Notes: generated by a model not told the origin, from the letters alone. A stretch of 64,000 bases of DNA from an uncultured Flavobacteriales bacterium (GCA_905612305.1 CAJQRK010000019.1:25811-89810); one strand, 5' to 3'. Numbered from the stretch's first letter, positions 5,206 to 21,493 are shown. A program made the numbers and translations.

Positions 5206-5269
5206 AACAATAAAGTAGTATATTCGTGTTTTCAAAAACAAGAGCAAAAGTATTACTTTTAAATTAAGC

Positions 5270-7453
5270 ATGAGGATTTCCAAAGAAACACTAAACCAAA
5301 ACCTGAAAAGTATTTTCGGATTCAATAACTTTAGAGGCGATCAGGAAGAAATAATTCTGAATCTGCTAAAAGGAAATGATAGTATGGTGATAATGCCAAC
5401 AGGTGGAGGGAAGTCGATGTGTTTTCAGCTACCTGCCCTATTATTAGATGGATGTGCAATTGTGGTTTCACCACTTATTGCCCTGATGAAAAATCAAGTA
5501 GATGTATTAAGAGGTTACCACCAGAATGAAAACATAGCCCATGTACTTAATTCCTCTTTAACTAAAACCCAAACCAATCAAGTAAAAGAAGATATCACAT
5601 CCGGAAAAACAAAACTCCTATATGTGGCGCCAGAATCATTAGTCAAAGAGGAAAATATTGCATTTTTTAAAGCAGTTAAAGTGTCCTTTTACGCTATTGA
5701 TGAAGCTCATTGTATCTCAGAATGGGGGCATGATTTTAGGCCTGAGTATCGAAAACTAAAACAAATTATTGACAATATAGGAGCAGCACCTATTATTGCA
5801 CTCACAGCTACAGCCACCCCAAAAGTAAGGCAAGATATCATAAAAAACCTCAATATAAATGACGGAAAATTGTATCTTGATTCATTCAACAGAAGTAATC
5901 TTTTTTATGAAATATGTCCAAAAAATGATGTAGCAAAACAAATCATGCAATATCTAAGTACCCGTGAAGGAGAATCAGGAATAATATATTGCCTAAGCAG
6001 AAAGAAAGTAGAAGAAATAGCGGAAATTTTACAAATAAATGGCATTAAAGCTTTGCCCTACCATGCAGGATTAGATGCTAAAAAAAGAACTGAACATCAA
6101 GAAGCTTTTTTAATGGATGACTGTAATATAATGGTAGCTACAATTGCCTTTGGGATGGGAATTGACAAACCAGATATTCGTTATGTTATACATCATGATA
6201 TTCCTAAAAGTCTTGAGGGATATTACCAAGAAACAGGAAGGGCTGGAAGAGATGGAGGAAAAGGAGATTTAATTACCTTTTATGACTATAAAGACATTGA
6301 AAAACTAGAAAAATTCTTACAAGGAAAACCTATTTCTGAACAAGAAGTAGGGCGTTTACTAATCATGGAAACCATTGCTTTTTCGGAAACCTCAATGTGC
6401 AGAAGAAAATATTTACTTCATTATTTTGGAGAGGAGTTTGATGCAGATAAGTGTGACGAAATGTGCGACAACTGCAAGAACCCTAAAGATAAAACAGAAG
6501 GAATGAACTATGTTAAACTACTGCTTGAAGGCGTGTTAACTTGTCGTGAACGATTCAAACCAAAAGAAATGGCGAAAATTATGGTAGGTGATAGCAATTC
6601 ACTTATCAATCAACATATGTCACAAATTGAAGATACGTTTGGTTCAGGAAAAGCGAAATCAATAGGGTTCTGGCATTCTATCATCCGGCAAGTATATGTA
6701 AAACAATTGCTTACTAAGGAAATAGAAAGTTATGGTGTACTGAAAATTACAGAGGCAGGAAAAGAATACCTAAAGAAACCTTATTCTTTTGAAATCACTG
6801 AAGATCATGACTATGACAGATTGAACACAAATAGTGGTGGTGAGCAAAAAGGAGAGGCAATGGATAAAGTCTTATTCAACATCCTTAAAGATTTAAGAAA
6901 GAAACTAGCTAAAGAAATTGGGTTACCTCCTGCAATATTATTTATGGAACCCTCCTTGATTGATATGGCAAATCAATATCCTATAACAATAGAAGAAATG
7001 GCGCAAGTACAAGGAGTGGGAGAGGGAAAGGCTAAAAAATACGGACAGGAATTTATTACTACGATTAAAAAATATGTTGAAGAACATGACATTGAACGCC
7101 TGCAAGATATTGTAGTTAGAACAGTAGCCAGTAAAACTTCCAACAAAATATACATAATACAATCCTTAGACAAGAAATTATGGATTGATGATATTGCAAA
7201 AGGGAAAGGACTGAGCCGTGAAGATCTACTTACTGAAATGGAAGAAATTGTAGAAAAAGGAACTCGCCTGAATTTAGAACATATTATAACAGATATGATG
7301 GATCAAGGTGAAAGAGAAGATGTACACGAATTCTTTAAGGAAACTGATGAATTTTCTTTTGATGAAGCAAGGATAGAATTTGAAGAGGAGGAATTTTCTG
7401 ATGATGAAATCAGATTATTACGCATTGACTTTATATCGAAAGTAGCGAACTAA
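5270..7453 (+). CDS. recQ: ATP-dependent DNA helicase RecQ
   Basis: Motifs MPTGGGKS, DEAHCISEWGHDFRPEY and TIAFGMGIDKPDIRYVIH, a Zn-binding CRR...C..CDNC, and HRDC-like C-terminal region(s). 727 aa. Confidence 0.95.
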   Translation: MRISKETLNQNLKSIFGFNNFRGDQEEIILNLLKGNDSMVIMPTGGGKSMCFQLPALLLDGCAIVVSPLIALMKNQVDVLRGYHQNENIAHVLNSSLTKTQTNQVKEDITSGKTKLLYVAPESLVKEENIAFFKAVKVSFYAIDEAHCISEWGHDFRPEYRKLKQIIDNIGAAPIIALTATATPKVRQDIIKNLNINDGKLYLDSFNRSNLFYEICPKNDVAKQIMQYLSTREGESGIIYCLSRKKVEEIAEILQINGIKALPYHAGLDAKKRTEHQEAFLMDDCNIMVATIAFGMGIDKPDIRYVIHHDIPKSLEGYYQETGRAGRDGGKGDLITFYDYKDIEKLEKFLQGKPISEQEVGRLLIMETIAFSETSMCRRKYLLHYFGEEFDADKCDEMCDNCKNPKDKTEGMNYVKLLLEGVLTCRERFKPKEMAKIMVGDSNSLINQHMSQIEDTFGSGKAKSIGFWHSIIRQVYVKQLLTKEIESYGVLKITEAGKEYLKKPYSFEITEDHDYDRLNTNSGGEQKGEAMDKVLFNILKDLRKKLAKEIGLPPAILFMEPSLIDMANQYPITIEEMAQVQGVGEGKAKKYGQEFITTIKKYVEEHDIERLQDIVVRTVASKTSNKIYIIQSLDKKLWIDDIAKGKGLSREDLLTEMEEIVEKGTRLNLEHIITDMMDQGEREDVHEFFKETDEFSFDEARIEFEEEEFSDDEIRLLRIDFISKVAN

Positions 7454-7490
7454 AACTAGAGATCACATCAAAAACTAAACAGCTAACAAC

Positions 7491-8006
7491 TTGAACACTT
7501 TAATATTATCAGGGTCAGTATCGGAAACCTCACGTTCCTTCTTACTATGCAAGGCAGTAGAAAAACAACTCATTGCAAAAGGAGAAGCTATCACCTTTAT
7601 AGATGCTAGAGAGATTCCCATGCACACTGAACACAGGCACAGAACAGATGAAATGAAACGGTTAGCAGAACAGGTAAAACAAGCGGATAATATTATTATC
7701 GGTATGGGCGTACATTGTTATAGTGTAAATGATGCATTGAAAATATTATTAGATACTTGTTTCACAGGTGCAATCGGAAAATTCTTTGGAATATTGTGTG
7801 CTGCAGGAGGAGAGAGAAGTTATTTATCCACTATGCACCTAACGCAAATCTGTATGAATGAATGGCGTATGATACAAATGCCTAGAATAGTTTTCGCAAC
7901 AGAAAAAGATTTTAAAGAGAATATAATTACTTCAACTGAAGTACTGGAAAGAATAGAGCTTTTCTCAGAAGAGTTTCATGCTATTGGACGTAAATTATTA
8001 GCTTAA
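7491..8006 (+). CDS. NAD(P)H-dependent FMN reductase-like flavoprotein (flavodoxin fold)
   Basis: 171 aa. The N-terminus LILSGSVSETSRS resembles the ILxISGSxRxxS pattern of the FMN_red family. The start codon is TTG. Confidence 0.55.
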   Translation: MNTLILSGSVSETSRSFLLCKAVEKQLIAKGEAITFIDAREIPMHTEHRHRTDEMKRLAEQVKQADNIIIGMGVHCYSVNDALKILLDTCFTGAIGKFFGILCAAGGERSYLSTMHLTQICMNEWRMIQMPRIVFATEKDFKENIITSTEVLERIELFSEEFHAIGRKLLA

Positions 8007-9172
8007 TTTCTTATTGCTAAATAAGCCATAAGCCCCATACCTACTTTTAAAGCATCTTCATCAATATTGAAATGAGAAGTATGCAGGCCATGCGTAATTC
8101 CTTTACTTGTATTGGCCGTTCCTAGTCGGTAAAAACAGGAAGGAACTTCATGTGAATAGTAGGAGAAATCTTCTGCAGTCATCCTCATATCTAAAGTAAT
8201 TACATTTTCTTCTCCCATATATTGATTAGCAAAACCAATCGAATCTTTTGTTAAAGGCTCATTATTATACAATGAAGGATATCCTTTAATGATAGAAAAA
8301 TTAACATCAATACTATATCCCTTAGCTATTGCTGATGCAATTTCCTGCATTTTTTTATGGGATAAATCTCTAAATTCCTCATTCATAGTACGAAAAGTAC
8401 CTTTGAGCTCAATGCTTTCAGGAATAACATTAGTATGGCCGTTTGCTTGCACAAAACCAATAGCAAACACAGAAGGCATTACTTGATATTGCAAAAAATG
8501 TTCTTCTAGATTTATAATTAATTTTGCAGCTGCAACTATAGGGTTGTTGTATTTATGCGGTAAAGCAGCATGCCCGCCTTTACCTTTTATTGTAATGTAA
8601 ATCTCATCAGCAGAAGCCATGTATTGTCCTAGCCGAAAACCTACTTTTCCTACTTCCAGTTCAGGAAAGACATGTTGAGCAAACATTTTTTCTACTTTAG
8701 GATTTTCCAGCACACCTTCTTTAATCATTTGCTGAGCACCGCCTGGAAATTGTTCTTCAGCAGGCTGAAAGACAAACTTAACACTACCCTCCCATTCACT
8801 TTTCAAACTATTCAATATTTTAACCACCCCTAGTAATGATGCGGTATGTGCATCATGCCCGCAAGCATGCATTACACCTTTATTAGTCGAACAATAGTCC
8901 ACCTCATTTTTTTCAATTATTGGCAAAGCATCAAAGTCGGCACGCAAGGCAATAGTTTTTAATTCAGGATTATTCCCTTGCAGCAACACTACAATTCCTG
9001 TATCAGCAATATTCTCAGTGAAAAGAATGTCCCAAGTTGTAAGTATTGATTTTATATAAGCTGACGTTTTATATTCATGAAAAGAAAGTTCAGGATGTTG
9101 ATGAAGGTGTCTTCTTATTTCAACTATTTCGTTAAAAGCAGCATTTGCCATTTCTTTTATTTGTTCTATCAT
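8003..9172 (-). CDS. M20 family amidohydrolase (N-acyl-amino acid amidohydrolase / hippuricase type)
   Basis: 389 aa with IRRHLHQHPELSFHEYKT, MHACGHDAH and FQPAEE metal-ligand motifs. Confidence 0.85.
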   Translation of the reverse strand: MIEQIKEMANAAFNEIVEIRRHLHQHPELSFHEYKTSAYIKSILTTWDILFTENIADTGIVVLLQGNNPELKTIALRADFDALPIIEKNEVDYCSTNKGVMHACGHDAHTASLLGVVKILNSLKSEWEGSVKFVFQPAEEQFPGGAQQMIKEGVLENPKVEKMFAQHVFPELEVGKVGFRLGQYMASADEIYITIKGKGGHAALPHKYNNPIVAAAKLIINLEEHFLQYQVMPSVFAIGFVQANGHTNVIPESIELKGTFRTMNEEFRDLSHKKMQEIASAIAKGYSIDVNFSIIKGYPSLYNNEPLTKDSIGFANQYMGEENVITLDMRMTAEDFSYYSHEVPSCFYRLGTANTSKGITHGLHTSHFNIDEDALKVGMGLMAYLAIRN

Positions 9173-9537
9173 TTTGAAAAAATAAGTTTTATAGCACCTA
9201 TCAACATTATTACACCAAACACCTTTCTGACCGTTTGAGCAGGTAAACTAATGGCTAGTTTAGACCCAAAATATCCGCCTACCACAAAAGCAAGTGCTAT
9301 TACGGCTGCATATTCCCATTTCACAAAACCTTGCTTATAATAGTTCATTGCAGCCAAAATACCAATAGGAGGTAACATAGCAAAAAGAGCAGTGCCTTGC
9401 GCCTGATGTTGAGTTAAACCCAAAAACATAATCAGCAAGGGTATCATTAAAATACCACCACCTACCCCAACTAAGCCACTTAAGATTCCGGCAAGCAAAC
9501 CAATAACTATTAGTATAATACAAGTTGTAATATCCAT
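9169..9537 (-). CDS. Half-size TSUP (TauE/SafE) family membrane protein
   Basis: 122 aa with 4 TM helices and the motif GLLAGILSGLVGVGGGILMIPLL. Confidence 0.75.
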   Translation of the reverse strand: MDITTCIILIVIGLLAGILSGLVGVGGGILMIPLLIMFLGLTQHQAQGTALFAMLPPIGILAAMNYYKQGFVKWEYAAVIALAFVVGGYFGSKLAISLPAQTVRKVFGVIMLIGAIKLIFSK

Positions 9538-9664
9538 AATACAAAGGTAAAAAGAAAAGGGAGGGCAGAGGGATGAGAACAGATATTTTCAACTAATTAA
9601 TTAACATATATTTGCCAAGTTAAGCGGTAAACAGAATGCAAAAATTAGAAAAAACCAATAAGTC

Positions 9665-10303
9665 ATGAATATCAAATCTTTTACTTTCAATCCTTTTCAG
9701 GAAAACACTTATATTGTATATGATGAAACCAAGGAGTGCTTAATAATTGATCCAGGTTTCTATACGGATGCTGAGCGGAAAGAATTAAAAGATTTTATTG
9801 AAGAAAAAGAACTAACACCTGTAAAGCTAATCAATACACATTGCCATATTGACCATGTGCTAGGAAATAAATTCGCAAGTGAGCAGTGGGATTTAGAATT
9901 ATATATGCACAAAGAAGATTTGCCAGTGCTTGAAAAAACAGGAGAGGTTAGCAAAATGTATGAATTGGAGGGATATGAAGGCTCACCCTACCCTAAGCAC
10001 TTTTTGGCTCAAGGCGATAAGCTTACTTTTGGGGAAAGTAGTTTTAAAATCCTGTTTACTCCAGGACATGCACCTGGACATATTTGCTTATACAGTAAAG
10101 AAAATAATTTACTTATTGCTGGTGATGTTATTTTCCAAGGAAGTATAGGGCGCACTGATTTGCCATGGGGAGATCATAGCACACTTATTAATAGTATCAT
10201 TACACAGCTTTTCACTTTACCGAATGAAACACACGTGTTTTGCGGACATGGCCCCTCTACCAATTTAGGATATGAGAAGGAACATAACCCCTTCCTACAA
10301 TAA
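9665..10303 (+). CDS. MBL-fold metallo-hydrolase (glyoxalase II-like)
   Basis: Contains THCHIDH (HxHxDH), a TPGHAPGH motif and GDVIF..S.GRTD. 212 aa. Confidence 0.85.
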   Translation: MNIKSFTFNPFQENTYIVYDETKECLIIDPGFYTDAERKELKDFIEEKELTPVKLINTHCHIDHVLGNKFASEQWDLELYMHKEDLPVLEKTGEVSKMYELEGYEGSPYPKHFLAQGDKLTFGESSFKILFTPGHAPGHICLYSKENNLLIAGDVIFQGSIGRTDLPWGDHSTLINSIITQLFTLPNETHVFCGHGPSTNLGYEKEHNPFLQ

Positions 10304-10328
10304 TAGGCGCGTATGTGAAAAGGTATTA

Positions 10329-10339
10329 GGTTCGAATCC
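10329..10339 (+). other. Orphan canonical tRNA T-arm 11-mer GGTTCGAATCC (tRNA 3'-fragment-like)
   Basis: The exact T-loop consensus sits 26 nt after the MBL stop codon. I could fold only a 4-bp T-stem (tagg/ccta) and found no complementary 5' acceptor or D arm upstream. Confidence 0.35.
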
Positions 10340-10610
10340 TATATAGCTAATAAGGAACTACAGAATGAGAAAGGCTTAGATAAGTATATAGATATGATAC
10401 TAACTGAGAAAAAAAGTAATGAGTATTATTATTTTCATTGCTGTATTATTTTTTAATTGTGGCTAATAATTGGTTATGTGCAATTTTACAAAAAGTAATC
10501 GATAACCAATTTGATTTATTTACTCTTTTAATTCTTGTATTTGCCTTGGGAAGTCTAAACCAATAAAATTATTTTAAAAAATATCTGATTACTCAGAAAA
10601 TTAAAATATT

Positions 10611-10726
10611 TTCTTAAGTTTGTTTTAGTAGATTGGTTAGCGGTGGAAAAAGTGGTGCAAATTTAAGTTTAAAAGCTTGCTGTAATCATGTAAATAGAGT
10701 GTAGGTTGTAATCCTGCTACCCCAAC
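10611..10726 (+). repeat. Islet repeat copy A (promoter-like box, about 68-nt conserved leader, about 48-nt diverged core ending GGTTGTAATCCTGCTACCCCAAC)
   Basis: The first 68 nt match copy C (14376-) with 2 substitutions and 1 indel. Nt 10662-10726 match copy B (12005-12070) at roughly 75-80%. Confidence 0.85.
10615..10622 (+). promoter_or_regulatory. Candidate Bacteroidota -7 promoter element TAAGTTTG (TAnnTTTG)
   Basis: Exact match to the TAnnTTTG consensus, conserved identically in copy C, and located 165 nt upstream of the 10787 ATG. I saw no clear -33 TTTG. Confidence 0.4.
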
Positions 10727-10786
10727 TTTTTTCTGTTTTATTATGCTTAGCATAATACTTCCTTTTTTTTTACTTTTCTTTGCTTT

Positions 10787-11326
10787 ATGAAAAAACTAAT
10801 TTCACTTTTAATAACGCTAACTACATTTATAAATATGAGTTATGCTTCTTTTCCAATTGTTGATAATTTGGAAGTAAAACAAGATACAATACAAACAGAA
10901 GAAATAAAACAATATCATTATAATTTGCAAAAAATGGGTATTGATTTGCATTCTTGTAAATGTGAAAGTTGCAGGCATGGAGTTATTCCTTTGGTAAGTA
11001 AACCAAAGACTCTTCCCAAGAAAAAAGAAATTGAAATACAAAAAGAGAAAACTGAACTAAATGGCAATCAATTTGTATTTCTATCTGTATTTTCTGCGAT
11101 AGGATCGCTTTTCTTTGGTTTTTTATCATTGGGTCATGCTTTTTCTCATAATAGTTCATATTCATCGGTTTTACTTTTTTTTATACTATCTCTTATTTCA
11201 GTTGTAGGCTCCGTTATATTAGCTATAAAAGCAAAAAAACAAGGAGTTAATTGGGGTGTGTCAATGTTAGGTGTTGGAATTGCAGTCTTAGCAGTATTAT
11301 TTCTATTCCCCCTTTTTTTTGTTTGA
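10787..11326 (+). CDS. Hypothetical secreted/membrane protein (signal peptide, CxCxxC motif, 3 C-terminal TM helices)
   Basis: 179 aa. It has an N-terminal signal-like MKKLISLLITLTTFINMSYA|SFPI, an HSCKCESCRHG motif, a Lys-rich linker and then hydrophobic helices. I recognise no family. Confidence 0.6.
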   Translation: MKKLISLLITLTTFINMSYASFPIVDNLEVKQDTIQTEEIKQYHYNLQKMGIDLHSCKCESCRHGVIPLVSKPKTLPKKKEIEIQKEKTELNGNQFVFLSVFSAIGSLFFGFLSLGHAFSHNSSYSSVLLFFILSLISVVGSVILAIKAKKQGVNWGVSMLGVGIAVLAVLFLFPLFFV

Positions 11327-11370
11327 CAAAAGTTTATGTCAGAAAAATATAATTTACTAGAATAAATAAA

Positions 11371-11399
11371 AACCCACTCATTTGAGTGGGTTTCTTTTT
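11371..11399 (+). terminator. Intrinsic terminator of the 179-aa gene
   Basis: AACCCACTC (11371-79) pairs with GAGTGGGTT (11384-92) as a perfect 9-bp stem with a 4-nt loop, followed by TCTTTTT. A second small hairpin GGACC-TTAC-GGTCC lies at 11403-11416. Confidence 0.75.
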
Positions 11400-11450
11400 G
11401 GTGGACCTTACGGTCCTTATTTCGAACTTTTTTAGCAAATTATTGAATAT

Positions 11451-11476
11451 AAGGCTCTGATCTTGCTACGCCCAAT
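11451..11476 (+). repeat. Degenerate partial repeat copy D (AAGGCTCTGATCTTGCTACGCCCAAT)
   Basis: Matches about 19-20 of 25 positions of the tail of copy A (TAGGTTGTAATCCTGCTACCCCAAC) and sits just after the terminator. Confidence 0.4.
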
Positions 11477-11587
11477 AGCGTACTGTATTTATATCATTAA
11501 ATTATCTTCTATTTTCTTTTACATCAATTTTTTCAAATTTTCTGTAATAAATTCAGATTTCTAAAAAAGTTCTTTCTAATAATTGAA

Positions 11588-11734
11588 TTAATATTTATGT
11601 TTGAAGCTTTCTGGAATCTCTGGATCATTCATCATATCTCTCTCTTGTTCATTATGACCTTTAGTAACTATTAATAATAGTCCTGTTATATAAAGTGTAA
11701 ATATTATTGATCCTATGATAAACATGGAATTCAT
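11588..11734 (-). CDS. Unannotated 48-aa single-TM micro-protein (MNSMFIIGSIIFTLYITGLLLIVTKGHNEQERDMMNDPEIPESFKHKY)
   Basis: It is below the ORF-track cutoff. Its ATG overlaps the TGA of the upstream 73-aa ORF as ATGA (11731-11734), which suggests translational coupling. Confidence 0.45.
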   Translation of the reverse strand: MNSMFIIGSIIFTLYITGLLLIVTKGHNEQERDMMNDPEIPESFKHKY

Positions 11735-11952
11735 AATCTAATATTTTTATTATCACGGTTAGCTTGATGTATTGCTAGGTAGAATCCTAAAATTGAAGGC
11801 ACCCATATCCCTACAAATATTCCTTCTAATTGATTGCCGCTAAACCATAATGAAACAGAATAGAGGAAAGAGATAAATGCAAGAAAAATAGCATAATATT
11901 TTCTCCAAAAGCGTATTATTTTTTTCATTTTTATAATTGTTATTTTGTGCAA
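11731..11952 (-). CDS. Small 2-TM membrane protein (65-73 aa)
   Basis: The track start at 11952 is TTG. An ATG at 11928 (MKKIIRFWRKYY...) is the more likely start. It has two hydrophobic helices and no family I recognise. Confidence 0.5.
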   Translation of the reverse strand: MHKITIIKMKKIIRFWRKYYAIFLAFISFLYSVSLWFSGNQLEGIFVGIWVPSILGFYLAIHQANRDNKNIRL

Positions 11953-12004
11953 ATTTACTTTTTTTTATATAAACGCATAAGATTATATTAAAAAAGTTAT
12001 ACAC

Positions 12005-12070
12005 TTTAAGTTTAAAAGATTATTGTAATCTAGTGAAATAGGTGTTGGTTGTAATCCTGCTACCGCGAAT
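12005..12070 (+). repeat. Islet repeat copy B (core only; ORF-less)
   Basis: TTTAAGTTTAAAAGATTATTGTAATCTAGTGAAATAGGTGTTGGTTGTAATCCTGCTACCGCGAAT aligns along its length with the cores of copies A and C. Confidence 0.8.
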
Positions 12071-12134
12071 TAATTAAATAAAAAAACAACTCTGAATTGA
12101 GTGGGCTTTATATTTATTAGGAGATCTCTGAAGT

Positions 12135-13202
12135 CTAATTTTTAAGAGATTCAAAAATAGCAGTTAACTTATTATCATTTCTTACCACATAATCTGATTC
12201 TAATATAATTTTTTTCATATTTTCCTTACGATCCTTTGTTAATGGGTGTGAACTGATGATTTTTGGCACAGAAAATTTACTTTTTTTTTCTAATTGCTCA
12301 AATAGCTTAACCATTCCGTAGGGGTTAACATTGTTGTTAATAAGAGTTTTTAAGCCTTGTTCATCAGCTTCTTCTTCAAATTCTCTCGAATAAGAAAGGG
12401 AATGAAGTTGTTGAGCATTTTTGGCTAATAAAGACATAATTCCGTTAACGTCACTAAAAAGCAAAGAAATCATCATATAGCCTGCAAGATTTCTAGAAAG
12501 AATTTTTATTGAATGCCGGTGATAAACATGAGACGCTTCATGAGAAAGTAAAGCTACAAGTTGATCATAACTTTTCATTTCGTCTAAAATTGCAGTATAA
12601 ATAACAATTTGACCGTTAGGAAGGGCAAAGGCATTTACTTCACTTGACTTTACAACAGTAAATTCTAGAGGTTTTGTATTGCCAAAATTCAGCTCTGCGG
12701 CAAACTGTTTTAGATGTTTAGTTTTTTCGACATCTATTTTGCTTTCTTCTAGAATAGTTTCGATAACCATATTTCCAATATGGTTATCGAAACTTTCTGG
12801 TAATAAAGCGGCTGAATTTTCAGCAATTGGAGGCAAAATGTAGAGATACATTAAACAAATCGATACTAGCACACAAACTGCAACAATTGAAATCTTTGAA
12901 AAACCAAGACTTAACAGTCTTGTATGAATATCTATAGCCTTCTTTTTCTTCATCGCTTGATAAAATTTTCGTGCAAAATCTTTATCGTCAACTTTCAATA
13001 TTGCATCCAAGTAGTTTTTATTTCTTATCTCAAGTAAATTGTCATAACTTTCAACTTGTAAGTCTGACAAATACCAAATAAGCGAATCTCCATCTTCTGT
13101 TTGCAAACAGAGTTGATTTTTTGAATCATTAAATAGGATTGAAATTTGTTTTGAGGCAGAAGATAGTCCATCAAAATACCTTCCCTCAATTGTATTATTC
13201 AT
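12135..13202 (-). CDS. M48 family zinc metallopeptidase with an N-terminal cytoplasmic domain and one TM helix
   Basis: HEASH at aa 221-225 (nt 12528-12542) and a downstream SREFEEEADEQG (the M48 third-ligand region). There is a TM helix at about aa 99-125 and an N-terminal GRYFDG...domain. Confidence 0.85.
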   Translation of the reverse strand: MNNTIEGRYFDGLSSASKQISILFNDSKNQLCLQTEDGDSLIWYLSDLQVESYDNLLEIRNKNYLDAILKVDDKDFARKFYQAMKKKKAIDIHTRLLSLGFSKISIVAVCVLVSICLMYLYILPPIAENSAALLPESFDNHIGNMVIETILEESKIDVEKTKHLKQFAAELNFGNTKPLEFTVVKSSEVNAFALPNGQIVIYTAILDEMKSYDQLVALLSHEASHVYHRHSIKILSRNLAGYMMISLLFSDVNGIMSLLAKNAQQLHSLSYSREFEEEADEQGLKTLINNNVNPYGMVKLFEQLEKKSKFSVPKIISSHPLTKDRKENMKKIILESDYVVRNDNKLTAIFESLKN

Positions 13203-13205
13203 AGG

Positions 13206-14174
13206 TTAACTGACTTCTATATCTAAGAAATCCATTGCATCTTCACCAAGTGCGTCAGTATATTCTTCTTCAGTTTGTTGAATTTTATCGAAGTTAATAT
13301 TCCCTTCCATTTTTACATTATCGCAAACAAATTTTTGTGTCCGTATATATGCCCATGGTAATCCGAGCCCTAAAGTGAAAACTACAATTGCTAAATTACC
13401 TATTAATAGCTCGAAAAAACTACCTCCAGTTGCTATTGAACTGCAAGTAATATTTTGCTCTCCTTTTTTCATTTTTAAATTGTTCCAGTAATAATTGAAA
13501 ATGTCACGTTGCCACCAGAACATGTAAATACCCAAAGTTATTATTGTAAGAAAATATCCTTTCAAGTTAAGCAAAAACCAGTCAAATCCATCACTATCAT
13601 TTGAAAACTCGATATCACCATAACGAATGTGTCTGTGAGTAAATCTGCGAAGATTCATTGCTAGCCATGAACCATAAATACCTAAAGTAATGATAGTGAA
13701 GAATATCCATTTAAAGAAGTTTTTTACTAATTCATTACGATTACCACGATAGCCTAATCGGATGCTACGATAAGAAGTTCGACTCATTTTGTATCGAAGC
13801 GATCCATGGACAGCAATTGGGATGGCGGCTAAAATCACAAGGTATAAAAATAACCCCCCTACAATTGGGCCTACAACAAAAGTAATTAATGCAGAAACAA
13901 AAACAGTAACAATGTAAAGCAAAATGACTTTAAGGAATCCAAGAAACATTTCTTTACCAGTACCAGAAAAATGAAAACGTTCATTATTTAGTGCTGTCTG
14001 CCCGTAAATGTAGCGAAGTTTTTTAGCTCTTGCCCATGGGTAATAAAGTCCAAGTGTGATTATTGTTAATAGCCAATTGACTATCATGATTCCGAAGTAT
14101 TCTGAGCCTTTTCCGAAAAACTCAAGACTATAATTTTGCGTCTTAGTGGCAGTTTCTACTATTTGTTTTTCCAT
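13206..14174 (-). CDS. DUF898 (YjgN-like) multi-pass membrane protein
   Basis: 322 aa. FFGKGSEYFGIMIVNWLLTIITLGLYYPWARAKKLRY and two further internal TLGIY/TLGLG..PWA repeats are typical of YjgN/DUF898. The stop lies 3 nt from the M48 start. Confidence 0.8.
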   Translation of the reverse strand: MEKQIVETATKTQNYSLEFFGKGSEYFGIMIVNWLLTIITLGLYYPWARAKKLRYIYGQTALNNERFHFSGTGKEMFLGFLKVILLYIVTVFVSALITFVVGPIVGGLFLYLVILAAIPIAVHGSLRYKMSRTSYRSIRLGYRGNRNELVKNFFKWIFFTIITLGIYGSWLAMNLRRFTHRHIRYGDIEFSNDSDGFDWFLLNLKGYFLTIITLGIYMFWWQRDIFNYYWNNLKMKKGEQNITCSSIATGGSFFELLIGNLAIVVFTLGLGLPWAYIRTQKFVCDNVKMEGNINFDKIQQTEEEYTDALGEDAMDFLDIEVS

Positions 14175-14375
14175 AATCTTATCTATTAAAAATTAGTTTT
14201 CATTTTCCTTAATCTCAGTTATAATATTTTAACTTCATATAACATGTTTATATCGATAAAGATAAAAAAGTAAATGGGAAAATCTAAAGAAAAAATAGAT
14301 TTTAATTGTAGACTTAACAATAAACTTAGATTTTTTATTTTAAAAAGTAATTTCTAATCAAAAATTTAATATAAT

Positions 14376-14489
14376 TTCTTAAGTTTGTTTTAGTAGATTG
14401 GTTAGCGGTGCAAAAGTGGTGCAAATTTTAGTTTAAAAGCTTTCTGCAATCTAGCGAAATAAGTGTTGGTTGTAATACTGCTGCTTTAC
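14376..14489 (+). repeat. Islet repeat copy C (promoter-like box, conserved leader, diverged core)
   Basis: See copy A. The core is ...CTGCAATCTAGCGAAATAAGTGTTGGTTGTAATACTGCTGCTTTAC. Confidence 0.85.
14380..14387 (+). promoter_or_regulatory. Candidate -7 promoter element TAAGTTTG
   Basis: Identical to the box in copy A and located 162 nt upstream of the 14549 ATG. Confidence 0.4.
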
Positions 14490-14548
14490 TTTTTTAATCT
14501 CACATTTTTTTATAATTTTTTATAAAAATCTGCGTTTGAAATATACTT

Positions 14549-15013
14549 ATGGAAAACAATGAAAAAATATTAAAAAAACTATACACAACGGGTAAGCGAG
14601 AAATCCAACCTATGCAATTAATTCCATTGAAATTTAATTTTAATGAATTATTTACTCGTCAATCGGTGGCATTAGGGGTTATAACATATTATTTCTGGAA
14701 AGATGTAAAATATGGAGAATACCTTTTAGAAAGAGTTGAGAAAACAGGTCAGACTGAGGATGATAACCCAAAATATTTTATAAAGAAAATAGAAAAAGAT
14801 GATGACAGTCCTGAGGAGAATGACATGAAGATTCTTAAAGATTTTCTGGTGAATTCTGATGATGGATCATACTCAACTTGTAAGAAATATTTAGAAAGTT
14901 ATCCTGACACATTACTCAAATGGTTTCAAATAAATAAGACGCAGGGGGGTAATGGTGTGGCTCAATGGATTTCATGGACTGAGCTTAGCCTTGAAGAACT
15001 AGACAACGCTTAG
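14549..15013 (+). CDS. Hypothetical acidic 154-aa protein, directly abutting the downstream nuclease gene
   Basis: I recognise no motif. It has an acidic stretch KDDDSPEENDMK, and its TAG stop (15011-13) directly abuts the next ATG (15014). Confidence 0.6.
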   Translation: MENNEKILKKLYTTGKREIQPMQLIPLKFNFNELFTRQSVALGVITYYFWKDVKYGEYLLERVEKTGQTEDDNPKYFIKKIEKDDDSPEENDMKILKDFLVNSDDGSYSTCKKYLESYPDTLLKWFQINKTQGGNGVAQWISWTELSLEELDNA

Positions 15014-16483
15014 ATGGCTCGCAAATATCTTTCCAAGTCAACATTTATCAAAGGTGTTCAGTGTGAGAAAGCTCTCTATCTTCATAGATTCAATTCTGAA
15101 TTAGCAGATGAAATATCTCAGCAGAAAGAAGCTGTATTTCAAACAGGAACTAATGTTGGAATATTAGCGCAAGAATTATTTCCTGAAGGAATAGATGCTA
15201 GCCCTAAAGATTACACTAAATATTTTGAGTCTTTCAAGTACACCCAACAATTAATCAATGAAGGAGTGGAAGTTATTTATGAAGCAGGATTTTGCTTTGA
15301 TTATGTGATGTGTTTTGTAGATATACTGGTCAAAAAAGATGGAAGATGGCATGCATATGAAGTTAAAAGCTCTACTAAAGTTTCTGAAACCTATATTATT
15401 GATGCTTCATTACAATATTATATTATGAAGAATTCAGCAATAGACATTGCTGATATATCTATTGTTCATATTGACAATAATTACGTAAGAAATGGAGAGA
15501 TTGATTTAAATCAGTTATTTCATTCAGTTTCTGTAATAAATCAAGCGCAAAATAATAATGATTATGTAAAAAATAAATTACTGGACCTTCACACTACTCT
15601 TTCTAAAGATTCAGCACCAATTGTTGATATTGGTAAGCATTGTAGTTATCCGTATACTTGTAATTTTAAAGGTTATTGCTGGAAACACATACCTCAATAC
15701 TCAATTTTTGATATTTCTCGTTTAAATAAAAAAATAAAGTGGAGCTTATATAACAGCAGATACATTGAAATTAAAGATATTCCAATAGACACTAAGCTTT
15801 CTGATAATCAAAAGATAGAAATAGATTCTTATATAAATCAAACAGAAATAATACAAAAAATTAAGATTAGAGAATTTGTTAATAGCTTATCAAGTAATAT
15901 TTATCATTTAGATTTTGAGACCTATCAATCAGCTGTACCACCATTTAATGGCCTTAAGCCATATCAGCAGATTCCTTTTCAATATTCTGCTCATTATGAG
16001 AATAATGGTACTATAGAACATTATGAGTTCTTAGCCGACCCCTCTAATGATCCTAGAGAAGCTTTTGTTAAAGCTTTAATTAACGATATGAAAAAAGATG
16101 GGGATATTCTTGTTTATAATATTGGTTTTGAAAGAGGTAGATTGAATGAACTAATAAGGATTTTTCCAAAATACCAAAGCCAGCTTGAGTCAATTATTGG
16201 TAGAATGAAGGATTTAATGATTCCATTTAAAGAAAAATGGTATTATGTTCCTGCTATGAAAGGCAGTTATTCAATTAAGTATGTTTTACCAGCGCTTGTA
16301 CCCTCTCTTTCTTATGATGATTTAGATATTAATAATGGATCTTTAGCAAGCTCCACATTTGCAAATCTTCATAATGTTAGCGATTTAGATCAAATTAAGA
16401 AAATAAGAAAACACTTACTTGAATATTGTAAGTTAGACACATTTGCAATGGTCAAGATATTAGAAGTACTAAGATCAGTTTAA
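15014..16483 (+). CDS. Dual-nuclease fusion: Cas4-like PD-(D/E)XK nuclease with a 4-Cys cluster plus a DEDDy 3'-5' exonuclease (DUF2779-like)
   Basis: D103...E116-V-K118 core. Cys residues are C17 and C210-x5-C216-x5-C222. Exonuclease motifs are ExoI LD300FE302T, ExoII YNIGFE373 and ExoIII Y471CKLD475. The N-terminus YLSKSTFIKGVQCEKALYL resembles DUF2779 as I recall it. Confidence 0.75.
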   Translation: MARKYLSKSTFIKGVQCEKALYLHRFNSELADEISQQKEAVFQTGTNVGILAQELFPEGIDASPKDYTKYFESFKYTQQLINEGVEVIYEAGFCFDYVMCFVDILVKKDGRWHAYEVKSSTKVSETYIIDASLQYYIMKNSAIDIADISIVHIDNNYVRNGEIDLNQLFHSVSVINQAQNNNDYVKNKLLDLHTTLSKDSAPIVDIGKHCSYPYTCNFKGYCWKHIPQYSIFDISRLNKKIKWSLYNSRYIEIKDIPIDTKLSDNQKIEIDSYINQTEIIQKIKIREFVNSLSSNIYHLDFETYQSAVPPFNGLKPYQQIPFQYSAHYENNGTIEHYEFLADPSNDPREAFVKALINDMKKDGDILVYNIGFERGRLNELIRIFPKYQSQLESIIGRMKDLMIPFKEKWYYVPAMKGSYSIKYVLPALVPSLSYDDLDINNGSLASSTFANLHNVSDLDQIKKIRKHLLEYCKLDTFAMVKILEVLRSV

Positions 16484-16503
16484 TTATTTTAAAAAATAAC
16501 TCA

Positions 16504-17721
16504 TTACTGTTTTCTTTTTTCATAATCCCGTATCAATAGGTAATACATAAACACCCCAAAAGCATACAAAGCAGCTGTTATGTAAAAGATATAAGCATAA
16601 GGCAAGCCCTCTGCTATTAGGTGTCTGAATATTTGCGAACTGAAAAACCAACTACCACTCCAGATTGCCGCCATAATAGCACTCAGCATCTCTTGGTTTT
16701 TCTTTCCTACATAATTCATCGTAAGCTCAGAGGTCATAGGGGCGGCCATATTCATAAGTGGAGTTCTTATCCAAAAACACAAAACTGCAAGCGGCAAAGC
16801 CCACCAATAATCTGCAAAAATCTCAGTTGTAGCCAAGGCTACCAAAGCGATAACTGCAATAGTTTGGGTGTAAGTAATTCCTTTTTTAAATCCTAACTTG
16901 TTTTTTATATTAGGCACCAACAAAGCCAAAACAGCAACAAATACACTAGAAATACCGCCAATAACAGCAAACCCTGATGAATCAACTTTAAAATTATGAT
17001 AAAAGAATAAATTGATAAACGGAATAGTTAAACCCGCCCCAACAGCAATAATAAAAGTGGGGATAATTGCTTTTATCAATAAAGCCCAATCATAGGATTT
17101 CCACTGCAAGCCTTTTTTGACGGGCACTACCACATCAACCTTTAATTTTAACAAATAGTAAACCCCTATAAAACCCAGAACAGAAATAAACAGCAATATC
17201 TTTCCTTCATCTATCCCTTTTATAAACTGTCCGGAACCAAAGATAATTATCCCGCTTAATATAGTGCCAAAACTATGTGTTGCATAGCTTAGTGAAATAG
17301 CATGTGATTGATTTTCAGCAACGGTATTGCGCATAATATACGGCAATGCACTTACCTGAAACAAAGTAAAAACTACCCCCCATAAAATAAATAACAATGG
17401 CAACAAAGAATGATGCTGATATTCGATAGCCAATATAAGTGAGATAGCAACCAAAGGAACCCCTAAACTACCAATCATAAAAAAAGGTTTAAGGGGTTTT
17501 CCTTTTATATAAAACCCCAAGGGAAACGCCAATAACATTACTGCCAAAAAACGATAGGAAATAAAATTGGCTATTTCCGGATCAGAAAAGTCTTGCTTTG
17601 ATAAATGTATATTTAAAATTAAGAAAAAAGCAGCCCCAATCAGTTGTATGAAAAACTCTGCCTTTATCATTAAAAGAAGATGTTCTTCTAATTGCAGATA
17701 CTGCTTAATAATTTTCTTCAA
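16504..17721 (-). CDS. MFS transporter
   Basis: 405 aa with about 12 TM helices in an MFS-like two-halves layout. Confidence 0.75.
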   Translation of the reverse strand: MKKIIKQYLQLEEHLLLMIKAEFFIQLIGAAFFLILNIHLSKQDFSDPEIANFISYRFLAVMLLAFPLGFYIKGKPLKPFFMIGSLGVPLVAISLILAIEYQHHSLLPLLFILWGVVFTLFQVSALPYIMRNTVAENQSHAISLSYATHSFGTILSGIIIFGSGQFIKGIDEGKILLFISVLGFIGVYYLLKLKVDVVVPVKKGLQWKSYDWALLIKAIIPTFIIAVGAGLTIPFINLFFYHNFKVDSSGFAVIGGISSVFVAVLALLVPNIKNKLGFKKGITYTQTIAVIALVALATTEIFADYWWALPLAVLCFWIRTPLMNMAAPMTSELTMNYVGKKNQEMLSAIMAAIWSGSWFFSSQIFRHLIAEGLPYAYIFYITAALYAFGVFMYYLLIRDYEKRKQ

Positions 17722-17738
17722 AATAAAAAATGTGTCTT

Positions 17739-18047
17739 TTAAAATTCCTCTATCACTTCCATGATAGTGCGAAAAGCAACTGCTTTATCGCCATAACGCG
17801 CTAGATGTTTTTGTTGCAATTCAGCAGCAAAATTAACTTGATATTGATGCAAATCCTTCATGCTTGGGCAGGTGTAAGTAATAGCAAAAGTATTATTGCT
17901 ATCCCCCTGAACAATCACTCTATTTATTTGTGCTTTAGTAAATACTGCTGCAGCCATCACTTCAGGAATATGTTCAGTTTTCATCCAATTTAACCAATCG
18001 GTTTTTATACTTTCTTCAACGCTTACGGTTACATTATATATTATCAT
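17739..18047 (-). CDS. DUF4286 family protein
   Basis: 102 aa. MIIYNVTVSVEESIKTDWLNWMKTEHIPEVM is the typical DUF4286 opening as I recall it. Confidence 0.65.
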   Translation of the reverse strand: MIIYNVTVSVEESIKTDWLNWMKTEHIPEVMAAAVFTKAQINRVIVQGDSNNTFAITYTCPSMKDLHQYQVNFAAELQQKHLARYGDKAVAFRTIMEVIEEF

Positions 18048-18052
18048 TCTTC

Positions 18053-19849
18053 CTAGTTTAAATTATCACCTCTTAATATTCTAAAACGCTTTCTTGCTTC
18101 TGCAGTAAATATACTGCTATTATGTTCTAGCAATATCTTTTCGTACAATTCCATAGCCTTCACTTTGTGAGCTAAAGTATTGTCATAAATTTTTGCCAAT
18201 CGATAAAGTGCATCATCCGCCAGAATATCATAACCCCAATCACGTGTAATTTTTTGATACATCTGTATAGCCAAATCCGTATTGTTAAGCTGTATGTAAA
18301 TTTCAGCTTTACGCATGTATATTTCATCCGATAAAGTATGCCCAGGGAAAACCGTAAGTACCGAATCATATTTTACAATAGCCTCTTCATATTTTTGCTG
18401 ATAATTAAGCAAATCAGCACTAGCAAAAGTACGCATTGCAATAAATGAGGTGTCCAAGTTTAAATTATCAATTATCAATAAGGATAAATGCATGGCATCA
18501 TTTGCAATTAACTTTGAGGTAGATGCTTTCAGGGTCCCTAGTTGTGCTTGTGCCCAATCAAAGTCCCCTTGATAATAAGCGATTTTAGCTCTTCTTAATT
18601 TTGCCTGATGCCCAATAGGATTTTCCTTAAAATCCTTTTCTACTTGCGAATAGTACAATAAGGATTCCCAAATATTACCAACTAGCAACATGACATCAGC
18701 ATATTCCAGTTTGCATTCTGCCAAATCAGTATTTGAAATTTGCGGTAGAGCCATAGCTTCATTTAGTATTTGCTTAGCAGAAGATAAATCATGCAAATAA
18801 AATGCCTTAAAGTGCGCATAATTAGAAAGCAATAACACTGTATTTCTATTTTTTCCTAAATCTGAAATCACATCAACATAAGTAGCATTAAGTACATCTA
18901 GCTCTTTTTGTTGTTCGCTCAAGCTTTTAGTCAGTGCATATAGCTTATTGATATTTGCATCTACAAAAAGATGGTTTCTCTTTCCTTTTCCCAACACATA
19001 GTCATAAGCCTGCACTGCTAACTGATACTCTTTTTTATCCAAGAAAGATTCTGCTAAATCATACACCTCCTCTCCATCAGCGCTCGTTCGTTTGTCCAAA
19101 GCTTTTGCTTGAATAAGTGCCATTTTGTATTGTGCATTCTGCATAAATAGCCAGATGAGCATTTCCGAAAAATCAGTACGACCCTGTTCTTGCCTTACAA
19201 ATGGCAATAATTGTTTTTTTACTAATTGATAATTTGCTTCACTTTTAATGCCATCATTATTCAAAAATAACTGCACTTTAGCCATAACCATTTTCTTTTG
19301 CCTTGGGTTACGCTTCAGTTCACTCAAGTATTCCGAAATCATCAAATCAACCTTATTTAAATGAGCATACAATTGTGCCTTTTGAGTGCCAAAACTAGCT
19401 TTTGGATTTATCTTTTCAGATTGAAGATATACCTTTAAAGCTGCATTATACAAATCATAACGCATAAAAGTATTCGCCACATTAATAGTTTGCGATTGCT
19501 GTCCAGTTAATTGTTTCAGCACTTTACCATAAGTGTAATTAGCCTTTTTCTGATTACCACTTTTTTCCTGAGCTATTGCTACTTCAAGTTGATAATTCAA
19601 ACTTTTAGGATATATCTTGGCTAGCTTTCTGGCTAATTTTTCTGCTGATTTGTAGTCCTCAGTTTTTAGCAAGGATGCGAAATAAGGAATATAATAAGCA
19701 ACAGAAAATCTCTTAGCTGAAAGTTCCTCATAAATAGTAATTGCCTTAGTATATTCCCCATTAATATAATACTGATAAGCCAATTGTTGTTCGCTTTTCT
19801 GAGCAAAAGCAAAAGAAGAAATCAGCATAAATACTAATAGTAAACGCAT
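18053..19849 (-). CDS. Tetratricopeptide-repeat protein with signal peptide
   Basis: 598 aa. It has the signal peptide MRLLLVFMLISSFAFA and many A/Y/L-periodic TPR-like repeats. Confidence 0.75.
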   Translation of the reverse strand: MRLLLVFMLISSFAFAQKSEQQLAYQYYINGEYTKAITIYEELSAKRFSVAYYIPYFASLLKTEDYKSAEKLARKLAKIYPKSLNYQLEVAIAQEKSGNQKKANYTYGKVLKQLTGQQSQTINVANTFMRYDLYNAALKVYLQSEKINPKASFGTQKAQLYAHLNKVDLMISEYLSELKRNPRQKKMVMAKVQLFLNNDGIKSEANYQLVKKQLLPFVRQEQGRTDFSEMLIWLFMQNAQYKMALIQAKALDKRTSADGEEVYDLAESFLDKKEYQLAVQAYDYVLGKGKRNHLFVDANINKLYALTKSLSEQQKELDVLNATYVDVISDLGKNRNTVLLLSNYAHFKAFYLHDLSSAKQILNEAMALPQISNTDLAECKLEYADVMLLVGNIWESLLYYSQVEKDFKENPIGHQAKLRRAKIAYYQGDFDWAQAQLGTLKASTSKLIANDAMHLSLLIIDNLNLDTSFIAMRTFASADLLNYQQKYEEAIVKYDSVLTVFPGHTLSDEIYMRKAEIYIQLNNTDLAIQMYQKITRDWGYDILADDALYRLAKIYDNTLAHKVKAMELYEKILLEHNSSIFTAEARKRFRILRGDNLN

Positions 19850-21115
19850 CTATTTTATTATATCAAAACCAGTGTAAGATTGTAAGGCTTTAGGTATTCT
19901 TATTCCTTCAGCTGTTTGGTTGTTTTCAATAAGTGCCGCATAGATTCTTGGCAAAGCCAAAGCGCTTCCGTTTAAGGTATGACACAATTGAATCTTTCCA
20001 TTTTCATCCTTATACCTTAATTTTAATCGGTTAGCTTGGTAGCTTTCAAAATTAGAAACTGAACTTACCTCTAACCACCTTTGTTGTCCTGCAGAATAAA
20101 CTTCAAAATCAAAAGTAAGTGCTGAAGCGAAACTTAAATCACCACCACACAATTGCAAAATTTTGTACGGTAATTCTAATGCATCTAAAATACTAGCAAC
20201 ATGATTTACCATGATATCTAAAGTTTCATACGATTTTTCAGGATGTTGAATTTGTACAATCTCTACTTTATCAAATTGATGCAATCTATTCAAGCCCCTT
20301 ACCTCCTTACCGTACGAACCCGCCTCACGCCTAAAACAAGGAGTATAAGCGGTGCACTTAATAGGAAATTCTTTTACAATTACATCACGAAAAAAATTAG
20401 TTACCGGCACCTCAGCAGTTGGGATTAGATACAAATTATCCTCAGCTGAATGATACATTTGCCCTTCTTTATCAGGTAATTGTCCGGTACCAAACATTGA
20501 CGCTTCATTCACCAAATGAGGAGGCAAATATTCAGTATAACCCGCATTAATATTTTTATCCAAAAAATAATTAATTAATGCTCTTTGCAGCGTAGCTCCT
20601 CTATTGGTATATACCGGAAATCCTGCTCCAGTAATTTTATTTCCTAGTTCAAAATCAATTAAGCTATAATCAGTAGTTAACTGCCAGTGAGGCTTAGCTC
20701 CTTTCATTAAAGTTGGGATCGGACCTACTTCTTTTATTGTAATATTATTTTCATCTGACTTTCCTTGAGGTACGCTTGGGTGTGGCAGATTAGGGATTTG
20801 AACTAATATATCTTGTATTTCCTTTTCAAGTTCAGCCTGTTTAGCTTGCAATGCTTTCGAACTTTCCTTAATCGTTGACGATTCATTCTTTAATGCATTC
20901 GCTTCTGCTGCTTGTCCTATTTTATACAATTCACCAATTTGCTTTGCTAGCTGATTTCCTTTAGTCAACAACTCATCTGCTTTTTGCTGAGTAGCTTTAC
21001 GCTCATCATCCTTTGCAATTACAGAGCTAAATAGTTTTGCAGCATCTATATTTTTTATTTTTAGTAAAGCCAAATAGCTTTCCTGATTTTCTCTGATTTT
21101 GTTAATGTGTAACAT
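19850..21115 (-). CDS. serS: Serine--tRNA ligase
   Basis: N-terminal coiled-coil arm plus class II motifs (FRREAGS, GSALALPR). 421 aa. Confidence 0.95.
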   Translation of the reverse strand: MLHINKIRENQESYLALLKIKNIDAAKLFSSVIAKDDERKATQQKADELLTKGNQLAKQIGELYKIGQAAEANALKNESSTIKESSKALQAKQAELEKEIQDILVQIPNLPHPSVPQGKSDENNITIKEVGPIPTLMKGAKPHWQLTTDYSLIDFELGNKITGAGFPVYTNRGATLQRALINYFLDKNINAGYTEYLPPHLVNEASMFGTGQLPDKEGQMYHSAEDNLYLIPTAEVPVTNFFRDVIVKEFPIKCTAYTPCFRREAGSYGKEVRGLNRLHQFDKVEIVQIQHPEKSYETLDIMVNHVASILDALELPYKILQLCGGDLSFASALTFDFEVYSAGQQRWLEVSSVSNFESYQANRLKLRYKDENGKIQLCHTLNGSALALPRIYAALIENNQTAEGIRIPKALQSYTGFDIIK

Positions 21116-21158
21116 CTTACCTTTTGGGTTTATCTAATTTTGAAACAAATGTAAATAA

Positions 21159-21186: not shown

Positions 21187-21210
21187 CCTAAATATAATAT
21201 AGTAAAATCC

Positions 21211-21468: not shown

Positions 21469-21493
21469 TATCTTAAGTTTTAATTTTTACTTA

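Follow-up and report, generated by a model that had tools for sequence, protein, structure and literature searches.

Repeat copies in the window

We analyzed a 64,000-nucleotide (nt) stretch of DNA from an uncultured Flavobacteriales bacterium (GCA_905612305.1 CAJQRK010000019.1:25811-89810), hereafter the window, in which direct repeats punctuate a set of accessory genes between an MBL-hydrolase gene and an MFS transporter gene. A sequence-only reading had placed three copies of this repeat (A, B and C) and one degenerate copy (D) here, all in the same orientation, and we recovered all four at those coordinates on the same strand. A 31-nt body pattern occurred twice in the window against 0.00 occurrences expected from 100 shuffles. 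While the copies stood, the proposed unit of about 115 nt was too short, as about 45 nt located 5' of the TAAGTTTG box are conserved as well (10567-10611 in copy A, ~14333-14376 in copy C). ARAGORN predicted no tRNA genes in the 64-kb window. The copies and their parts, including a fifth, truncated copy, are as follows (window position, strand, feature).

10567-10622, +, copy A up-module, a conserved upstream block, A/T-rich (AATTATTTTAAAAAATA...ATTACTCAG...), ending in the TAAGTTTG box
10612-10736, +, copy A, full length, as placed by the profile described below
10615-10622, +, TAAGTTTG box of copy A
10623-10703, +, copy A body, the left, P-type arm, from alignments of element copies
10640-10663, +, copy A tandem 12-mers GCGGTGGAAAAA and GTGGTGCAAATT
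10704-10726, +, copy A core GGTTGTAATCCTGCTACCCCAAC, from comparison with the genuine tRNA-Pro of loci L010 and L197
11352-11475, +, copy D, with a different left arm and a degenerate core, colinear with core-bearing junctions in L003, L108, and L119
11370-11393 and 11400-11435, +, terminator hairpin and GGTGGACCTTACGGTCC module of the copy D arm
11453-11475, +, copy D degenerate core GGCTCTGATCTTGCTACGCCCAA
12003-12070, +, copy B, 3' part of the arm only (profile positions 49-116)
12047-12069, +, copy B core GGTTGTAATCCTGCTACCGCGAA
14333-14490, +, copy C with up-module (~14333-14376), box, body, and core
14377-14501, +, copy C, full length, as placed by the profile
14380-14387, +, TAAGTTTG box of copy C
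14468-14490, +, copy C decayed core GGTTGTAATACTGCTGCTTTACT
16482-16509, +, fifth copy, truncated to the first ~28 nt of the up-module (AATTATTTTAAAAAATAACTCATTACTG) and fused to the 3' end of the MFS gene

Anatomy of the element and its tRNA-Pro tail

A full copy of the element consists of a left, P-type arm of about 135-170 nt and a 23-nt core, itself a duplicate of the tRNA-Pro 3' end. The arm comprises, in order, an A/T-rich up-module, the TAAGTTTG box, tandem 12-mers of the form G(C/T)GGTGCAAA, and a 3' body. The up-module was present upstream of nearly all full copies, the 12-mers ranked among the most conserved alignment columns, and mean column identity in the element alignments was 81-86%. 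Judged by its sequence, the box is plausible as a putative Bacteroidota -7 promoter element.

The core GGTTGTAATCCTGCTACCCCGAC differs from the corresponding part of tRNA-Pro(TGG), GGTTCGAATCCTGCTACCCCGAC, at 2 of 23 positions. In copy A, the core is the tRNA-Pro(TGG) 3' end with the T-loop CG changed to GT and one G-to-A change, and the core of copy D, which matches at 18 of 23 positions, is genuine though degenerate. The genuine tRNA-Pro of L010 ends in GGTTCGAATCCTGCTACCCCGA, followed by CTTTTTTCTC...CATAAATTTTCTGTAAGTTTG, and the tail of the element together with its flank matches this end and flank except for the change of TTCGAAT to TTGTAAT in the T-loop. The T-run and promoter-like flank that follow the tail are the flank of the genuine tRNA-Pro genes heading arrays in L010, L013, L087, and L123. 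The tail is homologous to tRNA-Pro, and its likeness to a T-arm and acceptor 3' strand, remarked on in the sequence-only reading, reflects the tRNA-Pro(TGG) 3' end plus flank. The tRNA always kept TTCGAAT and the downstream copies kept TTGTAAT, a split that is predicted by a crossover located 3' of those two T-loop bases.

An intermediate T-loop version between TTCGAAT and TTGTAAT, GGTTCTAATCC, was found in L081, L108, and L112, and the L112 copy is a full element. At type II junctions the arm joins the core exactly within ...TCTAAG-GTTC..., at the hyphen. The TAAGTTTG box (e.g., 10615-10622) equals the tRNA-Pro segment CAGGTTCG, at the start of the T-stem/T-loop, at 6 of 8 positions, a resemblance that may be accidental or may offer a path to secondary integration sites at promoters. 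We rejected the whole element as a decayed tRNA-Pro, as its 5' 80 nt were no closer to the 5' part of the tRNA than shuffles were (p 0.16-0.7).

Family size, arrays, and orientation

Scanning one genome per species for the repeat pattern, we found 38 loci, of which about 24 belong to marine Flavobacteriales metagenome-assembled genomes. The rest were chance matches in other phyla, near the number expected by chance. We then built a profile from 19 copies and ran it over all fetched DNA, part of which came from a metagenome scan in which genuine tRNA-Pro genes were picked up too. The profile gave 157 matches, 116 of which span the full length, in 73 loci (L numbers) on contigs of related marine Flavobacteriales. 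The sequence-only reading had counted a lack of further copies, or of conservation in relatives, against its proposal; the family instead has many copies in many related genomes. Two IMG/VR scans returned only chance matches and no true copy by the profile, and a phage origin was rejected on that ground.

The copies form arrays that are anchored at tRNA-Pro and strictly co-oriented. All copies lay on one strand in 43 of the 43 loci with at least two matches, at a median tail-to-tail spacing of 1.3 kb (interquartile range 0.7-1.9 kb), and the orientation was kept although intervening genes point the opposite way in L165, L105, L087, and L174. Genuine tRNA-Pro genes in the same orientation head the arrays of L010/L013, L087, L123, and L197-L200 (eight contigs, about five distinct loci), and L134 has a single 5'-truncated copy behind tRNA-Pro. 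The arrangement of an intact, proximal tRNA gene with co-oriented repeats downstream was thus seen in relatives; the array in the window sits at a solo core. Truncated copies begin at many different positions.

In most full copies a co-oriented open reading frame (ORF) follows at 30-60 nt; about one quarter have no co-oriented gene downstream, which counts against the RNA readings of the element. Outside the window the cargo is diverse, with defence genes and with exo-enzymes such as peptidases, a polysaccharide lyase, and a GH18 chitinase. Two other associations were considered and dropped. A role as rRNA operon leader, suggested by L001 and L004, was rejected, as a long duplicated gene follows the copy there. 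Type IX secretion system (T9SS) C-terminal domains, suspected from shared ...VEKKIIIE endings in the cargo, were not confirmed by Pfam in ten proteins, and the sole support was one weak Por_Secre_tail match in L188.

Several arrays carry a umuD/umuC-like pair (Peptidase_S24 and an IMS Y-family polymerase) directly behind an element copy (L038 2823-4527, L025 4102-5801, L188 17775-19479). These genomes also contain a second stereotyped intergenic module, in which a terminator hairpin (AAACCCACTCATTTGAGTGGGTTT) and GGTGGACCTTACGGTCCTTATTTCGAACTTTTTTAG are followed by a promoter-like box with a gene start or by a tRNA-Pro-type core. It lies at 11370-11435 in the window and also occurs in L001, L003, L004, L012, L017, L023, L108, L119, L120, and L152, with 19 copies in the fetched DNA; its minus strand gave sub-threshold Rfam leader/terminator look-alikes.

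Integrases and integrase-bearing islands

An integrase island bounded by tRNA-Pro and a full element is present in the four contigs L197-L200 (including GCA_002711125.1). They begin with tRNA-Ser and tRNA-Pro, after which come a flank of 75 nt, an A/T-rich block, and CGGTGCAAA motifs in tandem. A tyrosine integrase (Arm-DNA-bind_5, SAM_5, Phage_integrase) follows, and then defence cargo comprising a DNA methylase, GmrSD, and an SLFN/AlbA_2 protein. The contigs go on with a full element, a 50-amino-acid (aa) ORF, a second full element, a PKD-domain gene, and a third full element. This order implies that the element is the right-end junction both of the integrase-bearing island and of the stacked integrase-less cassettes. 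Proteins with Arm-DNA-bind_5, Phage_int_SAM_5, and Phage_integrase domains were encoded about 330 nt after tRNA-Pro in L118, L191-L200, L187, and L190. In L135 the 3' end of an integrase gene at the contig edge is followed by restriction-modification-like cargo and then a full element. No helicase, primase, or other replication module was seen in the islands examined.

The up-module and tandem CGGTGCAAA motifs of the element recur just 5' of the integrase gene in L118 and L197. Since this block and its 12-mers beside the integrase resemble the arm of the element, and by analogy to lambda-type attP, the 12-mers are putative arm-type integrase sites. L118 and L134 are orthologous tRNA-Pro loci (L118 1300-1720 vs L134 9829-10086), with the integrase in L118 only. 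L134 contains only the flank, up-module, 12-mers, 3' body, and core, and looks like an island collapsed by recombination between ~100-nt direct repeats common to both island ends.

Members of a second integrase family, ~40% identical to the first, lie behind genuine tRNA-Pro genes in two loci (L187, L190) and behind element cores in L027 and L188/L189. From the position behind element cores we conclude that the core does work as a target, at least for this family. Its own arm carries inverted copies of the TAGGTCCC repeat, which is also found just 5' of its gene. The L027-type integrase was rejected as the partner of the element, having its own left arm (GGGACCTATTCGGGGACC...) and using the element core only as a target. 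A third left-arm type (...GGAGGGACCTATTCGGGGACCTTTTGAGTTGTCATCTCTAGTAGGTTTTAGTCTTGCTACCCCGAC) was observed in L188 (1541, 2200, 13977), L189 (115, 9811), and L027 (3640-3680). The direct repeat TAGGTCCCCTAATAGGTCCC, which lies at the 5' edge of the gene for the L027-type integrase, recurs in inverted form in this arm, and these inverted copies are probably arm sites of that integrase.

The window island and its cargo

We fetched relatives with 83-90% identical MBL hydrolases for comparison of the locus. In L186 the MBL gene is followed by a 36-nt spacer and then by the MFS, DUF4286, TPR, and SerRS genes in the same order as in the window, and the spacer contains a solo 3' fragment of the element. 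The window and L186 were colinear by blastn over 2714-10338 and 16512-24163; the island between (10339-16511) measures 6.17 kb in the window vs 17 bp in L186, and its left breakpoint falls inside the solo core, after AATCCT. L180/L182 and L183-185 had other contents at the same site. These comparisons show that the island of the window was inserted and that it meets the flanking DNA, on its left, within a core. Its features other than the repeat copies are as follows.

10306-10340, +, left half of the resident solo site (GGCGCGTATGTGAAAAGGTATTAGGTTCGAATCCT), directly after the MBL-hydrolase stop codon, forming the left island junction
10727-11351, +, cassette 1, with T-run, hairpin, and a 179-aa membrane/signal-peptide ORF (10787-11326)
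10741-10755, +, conserved hairpin TTATGCTTAGCATAA in cassette 1
11588-11928, -, cassette 2, two small membrane ORFs (48 and 65 aa)
12135-14174, -, cassette 3, M48-family peptidase (12135-13202) and DUF898 membrane protein (13206-14174), from Pfam and NCBIfam
14549-16483, +, cassette 4, a 154-aa ORF and a DUF2779/Cas4-like PD-(D/E)XK nuclease (489 aa), from Pfam, PADLOC, and NCBIfam
16482-16509, +, right island edge at the truncated up-module, with L186 colinearity resuming at 16512

The left half recurs in the empty site of L186, where it runs on into ...GCTACCCCGAA, and in L180/L182, where ...GCTACCCCGAC follows. On the right, the MFS gene leads at its 3' end into the solo core in L186 and into the truncated up-module in the window, and the last few codons of the transporter differ (window 16504-16512 vs L186 10676-10690).

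Relatives carry similar cassettes. The N-terminus of the cassette 1 ORF and its upstream hairpin are common to cassettes in L012, L001, L010, and L197, and homologues of both cassette 2 ORFs lie side by side in the array locus L169. The hairpin is a perfect TTATGC-TTA-GCATAA located 3' of the tail and is conserved in the window (10741-10755), L012, L001, L010, L013, and L197 (18125-18180). It is tied to a small-protein family starting MKK...(V/M)SYASFP(I/V), with nucleotide homology extending ~75 nt into the ORF (window 10787-10865). For the window cargo, PADLOC gave a sole match, Cas4-like, for the DUF2779 protein, and exact-protein look-ups of two window proteins returned no match.

Two strain comparisons located junctions elsewhere in the family. 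L010 and L037 share a cassette whose ~98.5% identity sets in at the first core base, and the arms to its left are ~80% identical. L010 and L013 were 99.4% identical and diverged within the element.

RNA structure

Of the explanations offered in the sequence-only reading, those invoking RNA fared poorly. An Rfam scan of the element gave no match at the gathering threshold or at E<=10, and the only Rfam matches in the window were terminator look-alikes at 11340-11440. Single-sequence folds were no better than shuffles on both strands (z-scores +0.9 to +1.3), RNAalifold of 19 full copies gave a consensus of -6.7 kcal/mol without a compensatory pair, and no terminator-like site was found at the tails. 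We evaluated three candidate helices on 90 distinct full copies against shuffles, and none stood out convincingly. The 5-bp T-stem that had been proposed for copy A was not kept across the family: it was paired in 79.6% of cells, equal to shuffles, with pairs 1 and 3 broken in about one third of copies. A closing helix between the A-run and T-run was also no better than shuffles. A 12-bp complementarity between the 5' end and the core was paired in 98% of cells with one compensatory change, and as it is almost invariant it yields no covariation signal. The 90 copies gave no covariation support for a conserved structure of the kind expected of a structured non-coding RNA (ncRNA) or tRNA-like RNA. 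These results caution against annotating the repeats as small RNAs or pseudo-tRNAs.

Probable serial integration at tRNA-Pro

We consider it likely that the repeats are attR-type junctions, each an arm plus a tRNA-Pro core, produced by serial site-specific integration in marine Flavobacteriales. Features expected of tRNA-targeting islands were found, in part in relatives: a boundary repeat equal to the tRNA 3' end but for 2 of 23 positions, an integrase beside attL in relatives, and insertion relative to a related genome (6.17 kb vs 17 bp). A lambda-type tyrosine integrase with an N-terminal arm-binding domain would recombine a circular element with tRNA-Pro or a resident core. Crossover 3' of the two T-loop positions would leave TTCGAAT with the tRNA and TTGTAAT with the element-side copies, and successive integrations would stack units head to tail. 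Loss of the integrase from most units would then yield cassettes of one to few genes, each ending in arm and core. The integrase-less units observed are bounded by arm and core, with one cassette found in two contexts and joined at the core, and they resemble cis-mobilizable elements. In the window, the solo core downstream of the MBL-hydrolase gene would have served as the landing pad on which four cassettes accumulated, and the array would now be in decay: copy B has lost part of its arm, the C and D cores carry mutations, and the final arm is cut short. The cassettes without integrase may still be mobilized in trans, and the TAAGTTTG box, as a putative promoter, would fire outward across the junction.

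Several observations weigh against this reading. There is no integrase in the 64-kb window, and neither an excised circle nor an empty/occupied pair of one same cassette was seen, so we infer rather than observe the present-day mobility of the small cassettes. L010 and L013 diverge ~20 nt 5' of the core and L024 and L087 diverge at the 5' edge of the up-module. These breakpoints outside the core, together with the varied starts of truncated copies, indicate that homologous or illegitimate recombination also shapes the arrays. Neither the TAAGTTTG box nor the AGTAGATTG segment is present in the integrase-proximal copy of the arm, which leaves their near-invariance in the element unexplained. 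Binding of the integrase at the arm sites is proposed by analogy.

Three other explanations were weighed against site-specific integration. The element could be a multicopy small RNA or shared 5' leader: transcription would start at the TAAGTTTG box and stop at the T-run, and the product, of ~105 nt and resembling a tRNA at its 3' end, would act in trans or regulate the downstream gene in cis. The TAnnTTTG box behind an A/T-rich upstream tract, the T-run after the tail, the high primary-sequence conservation (81-86% mean column identity), the co-oriented ORF 30-60 nt downstream of most full copies, and the complementarity of the 5' end to the core in 98% of cells all speak for such an RNA. We nevertheless regard it as unlikely given the lack of Rfam matches, fold z-scores of +0.9 to +1.3, a weak consensus fold without compensatory pairs, a T-stem and A-run/T-run helix that behave like shuffles, and tails without a terminator-like site. 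The single orientation is also kept even if the next gene is convergent, and island junctions are marked by the 3' part alone. Transcription from the arm is compatible with the att reading, and a small RNA may coexist with it. Among the three options of the sequence-only reading, the results therefore favour cassette boundaries or recombination sites over a cis-regulatory leader or an ncRNA family.

A comparably improbable alternative is a passive repeated intergenic module, or 'mobile promoter', spread only by homologous recombination or duplication, with the likeness to tRNA-Pro a fossil of one old event. It would accommodate the varied breakpoints within the unit, the near-identical paralogues within one genome (L001/L004), the absence of integrase from most arrays and from the window, and the existence of other stereotyped intergenic modules in these genomes. 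It does not account for complete integrase islands between tRNA-Pro and a full element on four contigs, for element cores that serve a second integrase family as targets, or for strict co-orientation with tRNA-Pro in 43 of 43 loci. The junctions of the L010/L037 cassette and of the window island both fall in the core, and TTGTAAT and TTCGAAT partition as a site-specific crossover predicts. The dispersed copies of uniform length, some of them truncated, might also recall a transposon-derived miniature element, similar to a miniature inverted-repeat transposable element or the remnant of an insertion sequence end, that inserts between genes. Such an origin is very improbable, as there are no terminal inverted repeats, target-site duplications, or nearby transposases, mixed orientation was never seen, one end is the 3' end of a tRNA gene, and the family is absent from IMG/VR contigs.

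Serial integration at tRNA-Pro can be extended, tentatively, to integron-like gene capture on a tRNA attachment site in marine Flavobacteriales. It is possible, if less likely than not to hold in full, that cassettes are captured, stacked, and excised in trans by the arm-binding integrase, that solo cores seed arrays away from tRNA genes, and that the TAAGTTTG box is an outward promoter. Each single-gene cassette would then bring a self-contained ~170-nt recombination arm plus tRNA-Pro core, and the promoter would express the next cassette, or the integrase after the element circularizes.

It is an open question by what means ocean bacteria with streamlined genomes acquire and shed flexible genes; for Prochlorococcus the answer was tycheposons. 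For abundant marine Flavobacteriales, our data suggest an analogous system that is anchored at tRNA-Pro and operates at single-gene grain. Arm plus core is also a simple sequence tag that could map flexible islands, count cassettes, and guide junction polymerase chain reaction in metagenomes.

Comparison with known systems

Within Bacteroidota, the NBU-type elements of Bacteroides use tyrosine integrases of the IntDOT/IntN family that have an N-terminal arm-binding domain and integrate into tRNA 3' ends via a short common core flanked by arm sites. NBU-type elements are ~10 kb long, carry mobilization genes, and target tRNA-Leu or tRNA-Ser; arrays of single-gene, integrase-less cassettes are not known among them.

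Integrons likewise have co-oriented boundary sites between mostly single, unrelated genes, an integrase acting in trans, and strain-variable arrays. The resemblance is functional only. An integron would have attC sites, imperfect inverted repeats with R''/L''-L'/R' boxes, and an IntI integrase beside attI. The boundary here is not an attC, with no imperfect palindrome or inverted-repeat structure in the unit. By its domain architecture the integrase here is the arm-binding type of Bacteroidota instead of IntI, and a tRNA gene is the platform instead of attI with a Pc promoter.

The ssrA genomic islands (ssrA-GIs) of Dehalococcoides (PMC3146451) and the cis-mobilizable element (CIME) concept from the integrative and conjugative elements of Streptococcus are similar in more respects. 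Their islands are stacked downstream of a small-RNA gene, and each is delimited by a direct repeat of the gene 3' end with extra conserved sequence just upstream. Many units lack an integration module, and a fixed base difference separates the target gene from the direct repeats, as reported for the tandem ssrA islands (PMC3146451). The ssrA-GIs use the serine-type DsiB, whereas the system here has a tyrosine recombinase with an arm-binding domain. Units here are also much smaller than in the ssrA-GIs and CIMEs, at a median of 1.3 kb and often with one gene. Almost all of them retain a full arm of ~135-170 nt rather than a 20-bp repeat alone, and arrays also occur away from tRNA genes, at solo cores.

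Tycheposons of Prochlorococcus (bioRxiv 10.1101/2020.12.28.424599) share genome-streamlined marine hosts, tyrosine-recombinase elements at tRNA genes including tRNA-Pro(TGG), niche or defence cargo, and partial tRNA copies and degraded remnants that pile up in islands. Their relatives were reported from Alpha-, Gamma-, and Deltaproteobacteria, not Bacteroidota (bioRxiv 10.1101/2020.12.28.424599). Compared by features, the system here differs in its Bacteroidota Arm-DNA-bind_5/SAM_5 integrase and in having no replication module in the islands seen. A tyrosine-integrase element of marine Flavobacteriales in PMC11876622 appears to have a different integrase type. Our literature search found no prior paper with the core sequence or a description of this repeat family.

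On the reading favoured here, the arrays are of a known kind, together with tandem islands at tRNA and tmRNA genes, cis-mobilizable remnants, and tycheposons. They differ in their lineage, in an arm-binding integrase of the Bacteroidota type, in the very small size of the units, almost all of which retain a complete arm, and in the seeding of arrays at solo cores outside tRNA genes.

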